A DNA stretch of 64,000 bases. Source: Curvularia clavata. Lineage: Eukaryota. A program made the translations under genes and the position numbers. How positions within the stretch are numbered: position 1 is the first letter of the stretch; every line of letters begins with the position of its first letter. Positions 46,601 to 52,495 of this stretch are shown here, one piece after another. The stretch spans positions 4,712,001 through 4,776,000 of the forward strand of contig CP089274.1 in NCBI GenBank assembly GCA_023920165.1, in the 5' to 3' direction. The notes under the pieces are model-generated. The model was not told the DNA's origin. It saw only the letters and a program-made list of their open reading frames with translations, and did no database searches.

Positions 46601-49406
46601 CTCGTCCATCACGACAGCCTAAACTTCTCCTTGGTGCCATAGTCTTTCCAGCCATCTTCCGTGCCAGATGGAGTAGGCATTACCGCCATTTCCATGAATA
46701 CATATGTCCAAACGCAACCTCCTCAATTCGCTTGATGCCTTGCACAGTCCTGCATAATCTTGATCACACGCGATCAGCTGCAACCACAGCCGAGGCGTCG
46801 AGGAACCACGCGACACGGCACAATCAAACGACGAGCCTACCGCAAGCCAGCGCGCAGTTGCACGCGTTACTCGTGAGCCCAAGATAGTCCTCGTGTCTCT
46901 TCGTAAAACCGGTTGCCGCTGTGCGCCCACATTCGAGGCGGTTGCCCTCTTGGCTGCTCACACGTTTTGAGACACCAAGCTCGACAGTGGAAGAGCATCC
47001 CAGGAGAAAAACGTCATTGGGCGCTTGACATCCTTTTGCTTTACTCGGGATGCAGCTGCTCCGCGCGCAAAAAGCATAAACAATAACTGGACCAGCAGCG
47101 AGACAGTGACGTTCAGGCGTAAAAGCAAATCCAATTTCGCGGGCAGTGGAGTCTCGAGCCACCCGTTTGTTGCGCGCTGATAAACCCACCCAATCATCAC
47201 CTTGCACAACGTGACGCAGCTGAATGCAGAACGACGTAGGTGTAGATACCTCCCAATGCGACGTCGCGCAACCTCGTGTTGTCTTTGCAGACGCCTTCCC
47301 TATCTTGTTCCGCAGCTTCACAGCCACACAAGACCAATCAGCGCGTTTTATTGAAACACGCCATCAAATTGCATGTTATGCTCGTCGCAATGTGCTGGTT
47401 GCTATTGATCACCGTCTCCCCACAAATAGCTTTTCCAATCCGACTTTGTTCTCGGCAGACTTGGTCCAACGTCAGCATACCGTTTACTCGCACAGGGTCC
47501 GGCCCGAAACATTTAGCCATAATACTGCCGGGCGAGAATTATTGGCTACATACGGCCATGTTTCTCGGCTTGCTCCGCGATATTTGGGGTTACGTGAGCG
47601 ACTCGATTCTCGATCACCGCCGACTTATGCCAATCGACAGGCCCGTCTACAATACCGAGGCAGTCGCCGCATATCCGGCCGAGTGGTGTCTATGCCAGTG
47701 CTGAAGAACAGAGTTATCGATAGCTTCTGTGACTATACACACATCCACGAGCATACTCGGCTCAGCATAATTCAACTATAGAAAAAACCATGAATATACG
47801 AAACCTCATAGGTCAACGAGCCTCTCATGCGCTCGTTCAACACGCCTCATTCGTCCCAACAGCCCTCTCATTCGGAGGTATACCGCAGGAAAGGATGTCG
47901 TGGCTTGACAACATGCATGTGCGTCTGAGATGCAATATGCATTGAAAAACACTTCACACACATATCACCCCCACATTCAGACTGCAGCATGCAAACCACG
48001 TCATCCCACACCAATACTTCTCAGCTGCATCCAGTTTCTCGCTTGCTTGCTTGTTTGTTTGTTTTGATGCTTTTTGTCGTTTGTCTTGTAAACAAAGCAA
48101 GACAAGACAAAAGAACGCATCAGGTGCCCATTCCATTGATTCGTTCGCCAATTATTTCCGTGGCGCCCGCTAGAAAAAAACGTATTCAGCCGGTTGAAAA
48201 AAGTATGAAAACAAATGTGGTAGAATAAGAAAACTGCAGCACTTCCCTGAAGAAAGAAGGAAGAATGAAGACTCCAAAAGAAATTTCACTTTTGAAGAGA
48301 AAGATTGAAAAAAGAAATATCATAAAGATGATCTCGATACCTACCCGCAGAACACGATGCAAAATCCCCGCGTTCCAGATACATACCCGCACTCTTCCCG
48401 TTACATCGTGCACTCGCTGGCTCGCTCATCAGCCAGCCACCACAGACACATGGTAAAACGGGTCGTTTGGACCCCCCTACACCCTTCTCTCACCTTGATC
48501 TACACCAAGCACTAAGCACCATGAACGAAATGCATGACCAGCTTCATCCATTGCACTCTCTTGTCCTCTCCATCGCACTCTCCAAATCATACCCCCCATA
48601 ACCAAACACGATCCGGCCAATCAGGCCATACCCCGTTCGACCACCCTCCCCAGCCACATCTGTAAAAAGTACTCTAGAAGAAAAGAAGCCAAAAAAAAAC
48701 ATCTGCTCACGTCTCCCGCCTGGTCGTTGCTCATCTGCAGCAATAATCATGCAACTAACCAACCGGTCGACGACCGGCCAGGCGGTCGGCCGATTACCTG
48801 GCCTAGTATGTACTTGCTTGCTGCCGCGCTGTCAATGCCGCAGGTACCGGGTGTGAACTACTAGACATTTTTGCTCAAAGATGGGCGGGCGACGGAACCA
48901 ACCCTGACCGCCTTTTCATGCACGCAATGCATCCACACTTCTCCACCCCACACACATACACGAGTCCAGAAGCTCCGGTGGCCCAGCCCTCGAGAATTAG
49001 TCTTTCGTCTATGTACATATGCAAGTTCCACGATGTTGCCAACTGCCGCTACAGGGAACGCTGGCTCACGGCCGTACAAGCCGGTCCGCTTGTCAGCCTT
49101 TGTTGAGGCTTATGGGTTACGGTGGCAGGTACGGTGAGAAGAGCGGTCACCTAGAGCCATCCTCAAACCGAGAAGAAGCGATTCATGCTTTGATCACGAC
49201 ATCACCACATTAACGCCGCAAGCTTCAACCATAAACAAAAACAGTAAAGCAAAATGATCATGACAAAGTATATCGATTGACGCTATGTACACTATTGACA
49301 TTGCAGATCCGCTCCCAGCCAAAAGCCTAACTAAATCGACGACTGCAAATGGTTAGCAAACCAGCCTAGCAAAAGAGCATGTACATGAGAGTAGATGGCG
49401 TGGTGC

Positions 49407-49485
49407 GAATTCAGGTCTCCAAGGTGATTGTATCTTCAATGTGATTAAGAAAGAACACAGCGAATCATGTTTTTCATCATATGAA
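49407..49485 (-). ncRNA. Box C/D snoRNA, U55-like (LSU GUCUCmCAAGG)
   Basis: C box ATGATGA, D box CTGA; 13-nt antisense TCACCTTGGAGAC to LSU GUCUCCAAGGUGA. Confidence 0.82.
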
Positions 49486-49626
49486 GGGGGATTGGGGATA
49501 GGCAAAGAGCAGCACTTACCAGAAATGCAGAATGCCAAACTGCGAAAAGCGAAAGGTAAGACTGGAATAAATGCGTCAGTGGATGTCCATGAAACACATC
49601 GATTTTCAGAAAGATTGAACAGAACA

Positions 49627-49800
49627 AGTCCATCAAGTTTCAGCCTGGATCTAGTTAGCTGACAGTTGCATAGCCATCATTTGCGCAGTACATACCTCAT
49701 TAAATCAGATTTGGTTAAGTGATCAGTATGACGGACGCTCGTTACAACGCCGCCACTCACACAGTGTGAATATCAAGAATCATCATTGCAATGATGGACT
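49627..49800 (-). ncRNA. snR51: Box C/D snoRNA snR51 homologue (25S Um2729, 18S Am100), split by nested intron 49645-49695
   Basis: C box ATGATGA; D' guide TATTCACACTG-t-GTGA; D guide CTGATTTAATGAG|g-CTGA formed only after splicing; perfect 9-bp terminal stem AGTCCATCA/TGATGGACT. Confidence 0.88.
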
Positions 49801-49890
49801 GTCTTCGAGAAAAAGAAAAAATCGTACCTGTGGAGTCTGTCAGAAAAACAATCCACAAGAGTGTATCGCCAGAAATGTGTAATGTGTAAG

Positions 49891-50026
49891 GGCAATCAGT
49901 GATGCTTGTATCAACAAGTAATGCCTCTTCCAAACACCCACAGGTTTGTACGCCTGCTTGTAACGGATGCCCAGTTGAGGTATACGTTATGTCCGCCCGA
50001 CGCATCAAAGGGTTTCATCAGGATGC
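49891..50026 (-). ncRNA. snR70: Box C/D snoRNA snR70 homologue (18S Cm1639)
   Basis: C box TGATGA, D box CTGA; guide GCGTCGGGCGG pairs with SSU CCGCCCGUCGC (one mismatch), +5 from D' CATA lands on C1639; lies between snR41 and snR51 as in the yeast cluster. Confidence 0.8.
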
Positions 50027-50136
50027 TGAGGGGTGTTCGCAGAATGCAGGATTGAAGTGAGGGGTGTATGTACCTATCAGAACACAGTTAGCGTCTTGGT
50101 TGCAGAAATAACTGTGTAAGAGTATGGTAGGATTGA

Positions 50137-50232
50137 GCAGTGTCAGACAAGGCTGAAACTAAATGCAAGGGTGTCGACATTGTATGTTCAGGTCGAGGAA
50201 TGCCTTTCCGTGTCTTTTTTTCATCACGCTGC
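50137..50232 (-). ncRNA. snR41: Box C/D snoRNA, snR41-like (18S Gm1126)
   Basis: C box GTGATGA, D' and D CTGA; 13-nt antisense to SSU CAAGGCUGAAACU placing the +5 position on G1126; D' guide antisense to CGAGGAAUGCCU. Confidence 0.88.
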
Positions 50233-50373
50233 GGGCGGGGAGGGGAGTTGGAGATGCCTTACCTTTAAGAAGATTGTATCGAGTGCTGGAAAGCTAGATG
50301 CGCTGAATCATTCTACTAAGTTTTGTTAGCCTTTGCGCAAACAAAGGTTTGTGAATATGTGTATGTGCTTGGT

Positions 50374-50455
50374 TGCATCATTGTAATTCTAGAGTTTGTA
50401 AAGTCCTTCACGATGCTGTAGGATTTGGATTGTTCGTATGTGATAATCATCTGCA
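50374..50455 (-). ncRNA. Box C/D snoRNA, U45-like (SSU Am159-equivalent) with second LSU guide
   Basis: C box ATGATTA, D box ATGA, TGCA terminal stem; 12-nt antisense to SSU GUAAUUCUAGAG (50383-50394); 11-nt antisense to LSU UUGGAUUGUUC (50425-50435). Confidence 0.8.
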
Positions 50456-52495
50456 GGAGTCGCGGGAGCTGGAATTGGCTTACCTGATGTGTTTCATTTG
50501 CGCGACTGCTGCATTAGTATTGATCAAGAGAGATATAGAAGCGCGCAAAGTAGACGCGTTGTGTGGTTGGAGATGAGGTGTTGGAGAACGGTTTTGAGCT
50601 CCAGAAATTTTAGCTCAGAGCTCGGCGCCGAGCCTCCGTAGCGCCGCTTATGTAATGGATCTGGTGGGTCAGTTGCCCAGTCAACCATCCACTCTCATCG
50701 AGGTCGAACGCAAATCTTCAACCCACCATAGGTGGTAGACTAATTAGAGTGGCATTGATTTTGGTCATATTCATGACTTGACCCAGACTCTGCATCTGTA
50801 TCAATCTCGAGCACCCTCTGTTCTATGCAGATAGCAGATCTCGAAAATTAATGTAGTTTTTTTCTTCGATCACGAGGTATCCCCTTGGTTCTAAGACTCG
50901 AGAAGGCAATGTCGGAGCAGAAGTCGATTGATGGCTGCTAAATGAGTCTAATCTTGTCGGAGAGGAATTGAAACAAGTTGGCCGAAGGCCAGATCTCAAA
51001 AAATGTTGCTAGAGGCCGTTGTTAAAAATGTTACTCTCTAAACTAGAGACTCTATCAATGCCCCCTGTATTGGCCACAGCATGTCGATTCGCATACAAAA
51101 CTTGGGATGATGCCGCATCGGAAATGTTCAGAACTAATTGCCGACGAATGTTAGAGGCCTTTGTAGGCTGACCCCAAATAAAAGAGAAATTGATGTAGCA
51201 GTTGATTTATTGGTGCTACTCAGTGTATTCACCGAATTAACCTTGAGTTTAGAGACTACACTGATAACATATATCTAGCGTGTTATTATAACTTGAAAAT
51301 GCATGATACACATCACCGATGTAATTCTGGCTACCGACGTGGCATAATACATGATCAAGCCCAAAAGATCGAGGGTGACCCATGGTCGAGTAGGTAAAGA
51401 CGACACTGAGAGACACTTGCTGAGGGTGAGTTGAGTCAATAATATGCCCAGCTACAGCCTATTAAGTAGTTGAAATGTAAAATGAACTAGCTCACATCAA
51501 TACTTGAATATTGAAAATGCCTACCGCTGAGGTGTAAATAATGGGTTCTCCCAGCCGCATCTACTCAAGCAAACATTGCACTATAGTTATAAAGCAACAT
51601 ACAAAGCATTCTCCAAACTGAATTATGTTAACGTGACAAAGTCCTACAACACAGTCAATCTCTACGTCTAGATATCATCACATAGTTACGCAATCCACAC
51701 CAACACCACCAAACTAATCTAGATACTCGATAGCAACCCCAAGAGCTCTTTCATTCCATCAAATGACATTACACTACCCGTAAGCTTGTCTATATCCTAC
51801 GCATGCCGTCCCACAAAAAACCCTCTTACGCCACCTCTGAAGAAAATCCCATAACATCACTGCCTACGCATGCTCCCTACACGAGCACCGCAAGCCCTTA
51901 GATAGTACTTAGAATCTCTTATAAACTATAGCAGTGTTTCAGCACAAACTCTAGATCTCCGAGCACTCTCCTTCTTCCCGCACTTCTGTCCCCTTCTTTT
52001 GAGAACACCACACACCTACTTACGCACCATTTCCCTTTCAGTTTCTCTACCACCGTTACAGACAGAAGTACCACGTACCATTCACACCCTCTTTTCTCTT
52101 GTTCTTCTAAGAAAAAATTACGTTTACGAACCAACCCACTCACACTTCTCATGTTCGCTGGCTTCTTAACCAGAACCCGCAAGCACCTACCTCATCCGAT
52201 CGACTCGAAAGATATTGCTATGTTTACAACCTGAATAACCAGAGTGGGAAAAGCAGATGGTGATTGACCACTATTACTGTGAGCCTTGGGCTTAGAACAT
52301 CCACATCCCCACAGAGTCTTTCTGGTGGGGAGGTTCAAGTTCTATTATGTGATAGTGTATCTGATTAACTGGTATATTGTCACGGTTACGTCTAGTTGGT
52401 GTCACTACGGCGGTTCATGGGTGTGAAGTAATTCAAGAAGAGGGAGAGCCGGTTGATTGAGAAGTGCAGTTAGGTAGATATCAGTTACCTCTAGC

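Follow-up and report, generated by a model that had tools for sequence, protein, structure and literature searches.

The window, by which we mean the whole 64-kb stretch of DNA that was analyzed, carries on its minus strand a non-coding snoRNA host gene (50483-49343), in which five GT..AG introns were read from the sequence and compared with joints found in contigs from public sequencing runs (X1, X2, X8 and X13, described below). A protein-coding host was considered and dropped, since the ORFs overlapping 49300-50600 do not exceed 83 aa. Intron A (168 nt, 50483-50316) and intron C (177 nt, 49519-49343) are each delimited by a joint of the corresponding size in X1, X2 and X8. The former harbors a snoRNA at about 50455-50372 that resembles N. 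crassa CD17 (U45-type), with which it shares, as judged by eye, two 13-nt guide elements; its boxes are degenerate (ATGATTA at 50450-50444 and ATGA at 50381-50378) and it has no Rfam match. The latter harbors the snoRNA Afu_294 (49484-49408), which scores 67.8 bits in Rfam, above the gathering score. Between them lie three introns that abut one another, with zero-length exons at their boundaries (AG|GT at 50074|50073 and 49828|49827). Intron I (189 nt, 50262-50074; joint skipping 189 nt in X8) contains the snR41-type snoRNA Afu_455 (50231-50141; Rfam 61.9 bits, above the gathering score). Intron II (246 nt, 50073-49828) contains a box C/D snoRNA at about 50025-49896, with TGATGA at 50020-50015 and CTGA at 49899-49896, that matches no Rfam family up to E = 10 and occupies the position at which the text of Luo et al. 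(2013, PLoS One 8:e58547, PMC3596301) places snR70. Intron III, hereafter the outer intron (266 nt, 49827-49562, GTACGA..CTGAC..CAG), encloses an entire snR51 ortholog, and both its donor GT (49827-49826) and its acceptor AG (49563-49562) are confirmed by RNA joints (49561 to 50263 and 49824 to 50260).

As read by script from the window sequence, the unspliced snR51 ortholog spans 174 nt including its terminal stem (49800-49627, minus strand). The stem is perfect over 9 bp, the 5′ arm AGTCCATCA (49800-49792) being the exact reverse complement of the 3′ arm TGATGGACT (49635-49627), and minimum-free-energy folding pairs its two arms whether the RNA is spliced or unspliced. Box C (ATGATGA, 49786-49780) aligns with its counterpart in the Rfam snR51 model. 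Upstream of box D′ lies the guide for a U of the LSU rRNA (49774-49762), which we recognized by its match to the Rfam snR51 consensus AUAUUCACACUGU and by its identity with the same element in N. crassa CD6, the snR51 homolog described as guiding 26S-Um2687 in the text of Liu et al. (2009, BMC Genomics 10:515, PMC2780460). By sequence reading, box D′ is the divergent GTGA at 49760-49757, the fifth nucleotide upstream being A49765; the N. crassa CD6 printed by Liu et al. has UUGA at this place, and the C′/D′ motifs of snR51 are also described as divergent in yeasts (PMC3116282). Between D′ and C′, the predicted fold contains a hairpin (49756-49728), where the Rfam snR51 model likewise has an internal stem, followed by a degenerate box C′ region (ACTGATC, 49727-49721), an approximate assignment based on alignment to the UGA of the snR51 consensus. 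In yeast, snR51 guides the formation of 18S Am100 and 25S Um2729. The second guide of the window locus, the 13-nt CTGATTTAATGAG at 49708-49696, was located by script and by Rfam alignment, and presumably targets 18S A100, an assignment that we take from established knowledge of yeast snR51. This guide has a single match in the 64-kb window even when one mismatch is allowed, with a chance expectation of 0.09 matches and at least one match in 8 of 100 shuffles.

Immediately after the A100 guide, the genomic sequence continues with 51 nt (49695-49645) that display the features of a U2-type spliceosomal intron, namely GT..AG ends, a GTATGT 5′ site, a GCTAAC motif whose branch A lies 10 nt before the end, and a terminal CAG. 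This inner intron, which is separated from the outer donor by about 130 nt and from the outer acceptor by 82 nt, is followed by a G and then by box D (CTGA, 49643-49640), one nucleotide past the inner 3′ splice site. Removing the 51 nt produces ..AATGAG-G-CTGA, in which box D is preceded, five nucleotides upstream, by the U of AAU, and the spacing of the spliced U-G-A-G-G-CUGA is that of the Rfam snR51 consensus ..AAUGACU-CUGA (U-G-A-C-U-CUGA). The guides, boxes C and D and the terminal stem are all found at the locus, with box D canonically placed only once the 51 nt are removed, and the fifth-nucleotide pairing of the A100 guide is satisfied only in the spliced form, the junction of which is present in RNA (see below). 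When genomic, unspliced DNA was searched at permissive thresholds, the Rfam snR51 model (RF01214) aligned to 49790-49693 at 41.9 bits (E = 0.017) and did not reach its gathering score of 44. The alignment extends from the C box through the LSU guide and internal stem to the 18S guide, and fails at the 3′ end only, where it stops after AAUGA and includes no CUGA. An initial annotation of this stretch had proposed the same arrangement, that is, an snR51 at 49627..49800 whose guide has no adjoining D box, a perfect stem (49792-49800 with 49627-49635) around the distal D box, and an intervening GTATGT..GCTAAC..CAG intron whose removal gives guide-G-CTGA with the right +5 spacing; every one of its coordinates was reproduced by script, and the spacing it predicted equals that of the Rfam family.

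We then turned to RNA. Public runs with matches to the locus numbered 23 among those listed, all in the form of assembled contigs, and four of them, from four different studies, were examined (X1, X2, X8 and X13). X13 is recorded as oligo-dT metatranscriptomic RNA. The three others are marked “RNA?”, and we consider them to be RNA because further intron joints occur in each, with four or five additional GT..AG joints within the same 1.3 kb. In contigs of all four examined runs, position 49643 is joined to 49695, skipping the 51 nt of the inner intron; the skipped sequence has CT..AC ends on the plus strand, hence GT..AG ends on the strand of the gene. This joint creates the predicted junction ..TTTAATGAG|GCTGAAAC, and the contigs that carry it have word depths of 68.6, 134.6, 20.6 and 6.31. 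The contigs bearing the joint retain the flanks of the outer intron on both sides. Record 3 of X1 and record 12 of X2 cover 49534-49643 plus 49695-49829 and cross the unspliced outer acceptor, while record 16 of X8 (527 nt) covers 49525-49643 plus 49695-50070 and is then joined to 50260, such that the inner intron and intron I have been removed and introns II and III kept. These contigs show that the inner intron is spliced out precisely while the outer intron is still present. None of the contigs in the four examined runs covers the interior of the 51 nt, and the depth of the bin 49652-49695 is 0.14-3.06, compared with 6-135 in the adjacent bins. Given that assembled contigs drop rare variants, and that RNA ends and levels do not appear in them, the lack of contigs with the inner intron kept can be taken to show no more than this: among RNAs that hold the outer intron, the form spliced at the inner intron is the dominant one. 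An order in which the inner intron leaves first fits these observations. The initial annotation had proposed such nested splicing together with an outer branch motif CTGAC and an outer acceptor at 49562, of which the acceptor is confirmed by the RNA joints and the order supported by the outer intron retained in contigs with the 51-nt joint; the splice junction that it had put forward as a check is the one recovered in all four runs.

The same contigs inform on the splicing of the host introns. X1, X2 and X8 contain joints removing intron C (177 nt), intron A (168 nt) and the whole of introns I-III (701 nt); a joint removing introns I and II together (435 nt skipped) is found in X1 and X2, and one removing intron I (189 nt skipped) in X8. 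One donor (50262) is thus joined to three successive acceptors, with 189, 435 and 701 nt skipped, and no joint removing intron II alone or intron III alone was found in the four examined runs. Stretches without contig cover (e.g., 50092-50223 in X1, X2 and X8) were left out of the evidence. The joints across 50262-49562 suggest either recursive (stepwise) splicing or the use of alternative acceptors, being compatible with both, and the text of Luo et al. (PMC3596301) likewise does not tell the two apart. Separately, the window differs from the RNA contigs of different runs by single bases at 49606, 49976, 50186 and 50527 and by a 1-nt deletion at 49816. The single-base differences most likely reflect differences between strains, and the boxes, guides and splice sites of snR51 are free of them.

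To compare the window with related loci, we scanned metagenomes for loci in which both snR51 guides lie 30-60 nt apart, requiring nothing downstream, a design by which the guides are conserved by construction. The scan gave at least 117 loci, at least 98 of them distinct after removal of duplicates; these loci carry no taxon names. Of the 98 distinct loci among the matches listed, 74 are interrupted at the identical position, exactly after ..AATGAG and before N-CTGA, by an intron 46-68 nt long, and 18 have none. N-CTGA (once N-CCGA) follows the intron in 74/74 of these listed loci, a count that the regular expression partly imposed. The intronless loci among the matches listed read CTCTGA as in the yeast consensus (n = 9), GCCTGA (n = 8) or GACTGA (n = 1), and the rest of the 98 comprise four that end at a contig edge, all four starting with GGT, and two that are unrelated. 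The intronless GAG-C-CTGA corresponds letter for letter to the spliced product of the intron-bearing loci.

Splice signals and conservation were counted in the window plus 73 of the 74 listed intron-bearing loci, one having been dropped as no C box was found in it by regular expression. In this set, the 5′ site is GTATGT in 30/74 introns and another GT (once GC) in the rest, the last branch motif is CTAAC in 39 and CTGAC in 19 (together 58/74), CTAAT or CTGAT in 13 and absent in 3, and the 3′ end is CAG, TAG or AAG in 74/74. In 2685 of 2701 pairs, conservation is higher in the snoRNA part than in the intron, the mean identities being 0.725 and 0.555, respectively. The listed orthologous loci thus display an intron of conserved position and diverging sequence, as is the case for a U2-type intron. 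The terminal stem around the distal box D has a mean length of 6.15 bp, compared with 4.67 bp for mismatched partners, and reaches at least 7 bp in 22/74 cases with the locus's own flanks versus 93/1465 with mismatched partners. Its arms differ between lineages yet stay complementary, as illustrated by AGTCCATCA/TGATGGACT in the window and GCATGCGTCT/AGACGCATGC in locus L003. In the same set, a branch..YAG|GT junction lies upstream, 37-58 nt before box C, in 70/74 sequences (1/74 on the reverse complement), and a branch..YAG lies downstream in 71/74 (16/74 on the reverse complement). We consider the nested layout to be conserved because these outer-intron signals are present upstream and downstream in 70/74 and 71/74, respectively.

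One intronless locus, L072, matched on its minus strand at 351-419, is colinear with L036 and L064, outer-intron junctions included, with the inner intron precisely absent. Judging from this alignment, L072 may represent either a clean secondary loss of the intron or a lineage that split off before the gain.

The nested architecture of snR51 introns is already published, and the window is a further instance of it, with direct confirmation at the RNA level. The text of Luo et al. (PMC3596301) describes, in the intronic snR51 of Euascomycetes, an “intron B” located between the antisense element and box D, to which our 51-nt intron corresponds; it speaks of “snR51-associated nested introns,” reports that the intron sequences are divergent in different Euascomycetes, and infers a single gain in the Euascomycete ancestor. 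It also describes an intron-intron-intron structure, with 42 ESTs compatible with a 5′-to-3′ stepwise removal of introns I-III. The window agrees with cluster III (snR41-snR70-snR51) of these authors in the cluster itself, the position of the inner intron within an intronic snR51, the abutting introns I, II and III with no interior exons, and the flanking snoRNA introns. We found no structural difference from the layout given in their text, and what the window adds is the removal of intron B with intron III retained: the passages of that article that were searched contain no report of the removal of intron B in RNA, nor of its consequence for the guide, and the figures or supplements may show the removal. 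Only Luo et al. (2013) was found in our search for literature linking a spliceosomal nested intron to a snoRNA box D; a search for stwintrons together with snoRNAs gave nothing on the snR51 locus, and none of the literature matches listed was a relevant ribose-methylation map of a filamentous fungus, nor was A100 methylation found documented for this lineage. In a 2018 survey of fungal snoRNAs (PMC5824354), the text, searched for introns, snR51 and Luo, leaves the inner intron unmentioned and predicts, for Onygenales and some Dothideomycetes, that the D-box guide of snR51 (CD_6) has an LSU target; box D and its target may have been mis-assigned there, if the pipeline left the inner intron in.

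Taken together, these results lead us to a model that we hold with considerable confidence, in which the locus is the snR51 of a filamentous ascomycete, lodged in the third of three abutting host introns and split by a 51-nt U2-type intron that separates box D from the A100 guide, and matures along the following pathway. It would begin with the removal of the short inner intron, which has near-consensus signals, from a host precursor that still contains the outer intron, a step that the contigs show. The guide-G-CUGA would be formed by this removal, and the 9-bp stem would place box C beside box D, as can be read directly from the sequence. Core snoRNP proteins would then presumably assemble on the now canonical C/D motif. 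The outer intron would be excised stepwise from zero-length exons, the intermediates of this step being seen in the contigs, and the excised intron would probably undergo debranching and exonucleolytic trimming, leaving a double-guide snoRNA of about 105-123 nt. By analogy with yeast snR51, this RNA would direct 2′-O-methylation of the LSU U (yeast Um2729) via D′ and of 18S A100 via D. Intronic box C/D snoRNAs have their motif bound by core proteins, after which the intron is released, debranched and trimmed to the boundaries of the snoRNP. From these elements we infer a mature snoRNA that carries the junction and methylates 18S A100. As for the order of events, the inner 3′ splice site lies one nucleotide from box D, so that early snoRNP assembly would probably mask this splice site, which provides a reason for the inner intron to leave first.

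A different reading is offered by the annotation of the N. crassa ortholog. Liu et al. (PMC2780460) report CD6 as a 76-nt cDNA, exon-encoded, with a single guide and a D′ target (26S-Um2687) only, and their table of N. crassa snoRNAs contains no guide for 18S A~100. CD6 and the window locus are alike in their C box, their LSU guide, their divergent D′ (UUGA versus GTGA) and the sequence ..AAUCUGAUUUAAUGAG followed by gua, and differ in that the CD6 annotation recognizes neither the A100 guide nor the inner intron. Transposed to the window, this would mean a short, single-guide snoRNA ending near the inner 5′ splice site, with the CUGA within the A100 guide (49708-49705) acting as box D, the RNA from intron II to the inner intron being an exon and the A100 guide and distal CTGA mere relics. 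The location “Exon” given for CD6 and its printed clone, which stops at ..AAUGAG, speak for it. However, the N. crassa library was made with a dT16-NNN-TCAG primer on A-tailed RNA (PMC2780460), so that only RNAs with CUGA plus 3 nt as their 3′ end can yield a clone; the printed clone, which runs to ..AAUCUGAUUUAAUGAG and is then followed by genomic gua in lower case, extends 9 nt past its internal CUGA and does not suit this requirement. A clone ending in this way, at the splice site, would fit a spliced ..GAG-N-CUGA-NNN RNA, an interpretation that is ours and on which the authors' text is silent. Several features of the loci also argue against a short RNA. The distal N-CTGA stands straight after the 3′ splice site in 74/74 listed loci, although the regular expression required it; the distal box D is flanked by a stem pairing with the flank of box C, with arms that vary between lineages; and the intronless homologs among the matches listed have guide-N-CTGA. 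Moreover, the RNA joints remove 49827-49562 as an intron, which leaves no stable exon. We therefore regard the short-RNA interpretation as very unlikely, and retain the split, double-guide snR51.

It could also be argued that the unspliced snoRNA is the functional one, the terminal stem joining box C to the distal box D with the 51 nt looped out, and that the spliced form is a by-product of host splicing. The unspliced 174-nt RNA is indeed predicted to fold with the 9-bp stem formed, but the insert puts the guide 52 nt from box D, such that the fifth-nucleotide rule cannot select A100. What the insert keeps is splice signals only, the snoRNA part being the better conserved in nearly all pairs formed by the listed loci and the window (2685/2701), and contigs retaining the insert number 0 in the four runs, compared with joint-bearing contigs at word depths of 6 to 135. 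We give this explanation almost no weight. No more credible is a decaying copy of snR51, whose inner intron would be spliced merely as part of the host RNA and which would yield no functional snoRNA, A100 being guided from elsewhere or unmethylated: a second intact copy could lie outside the 64-kb window to which the analysis extends, and the genomic Rfam score of 41.9 is below the gathering score of 44, but boxes C and D, both guides and the perfect 9-bp stem are intact, the split layout recurs in 74 distinct listed loci with divergent flanks, which argues for long purifying selection, and it extends across Euascomycetes according to the text of Luo et al. (PMC3596301).

Among known systems, the split snR51 of the window can be compared with that of S. 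cerevisiae (RF01214), with which it shares both guides, the divergent C′/D′, the internal stem and the neighbors snR41 and snR70. In yeast, no intron splits the gene, and the snoRNA is released from a polycistronic transcript rather than from an intron. The window gene, in contrast, is wholly intronic and has its box D displaced by 51 nt. Fungal U3 genes, as described in the text of Canzler, Stadler and Hertel (2017, PMC5832005), also encode a snoRNA of the box C/D class from which a spliceosomal intron must be removed to obtain the functional RNA. Unlike the window snR51, U3 is an independently transcribed processing snoRNA, neither nested in an intron nor serving as a methylation guide, and its own intron lies in the 5′ region, not between a guide and box D. 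The stwintrons of Pezizomycotina, according to the text of PMC8469720, resemble the present case, which belongs to the same group of fungi, in that one U2-type intron is contained in another and the inner one must be removed first; the sequence interrupted in a stwintron is a splice signal of the outer intron, whereas in the window it is the snoRNA cargo. We rejected an assignment to this class, as the inner intron (49695-49645) lies apart from the outer donor (49827), branch motif (CTGAC, about 49579) and acceptor (49562).

It is rare for a methylation-guide snoRNA to depend on splicing, inside another intron, for the joining of its guide to box D, and this gene architecture imposes an order on two splicing events. 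The RNA contigs provide direct evidence, from one more species, for the removal of the inner intron first. Although in print, this architecture has been little noticed: the N. crassa ortholog is annotated as single-guide and exonic in the text of Liu et al. (PMC2780460), and the Rfam model falls below threshold on genomic DNA. For the annotation of Pezizomycotina genomes, the lesson is that snR51 and its A100 guide will be missed or mis-called unless the intron of 46-68 nt is removed first. The retention of the intron at one exact spot in most filamentous ascomycetes is notable for its breadth, since loss seems possible, as in L072. It is nevertheless unlikely, in our opinion, that the inner intron is kept for a function, be it as a timer or checkpoint, by which the A100 guide would become active only after passage of the spliceosome, or as a switch that would tune A100 methylation apart from the D′ LSU site. 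Such a role would draw on the closeness of the inner 3′ splice site to box D, which should make splicing and C/D snoRNP assembly mutually exclusive.

Within the inner intron, an ATGATGG was considered as a second C box and rejected, given that the approximately 40 nt that separate it from CTGA are too short for a snoRNA and that ATGATG occurs in 5/74 introns only. This C-box-like ATGATG is found in the window (49681-49675) and in loci L005, L013, L020 and L059, some of which are closely related, and its occurrence may be due to chance.
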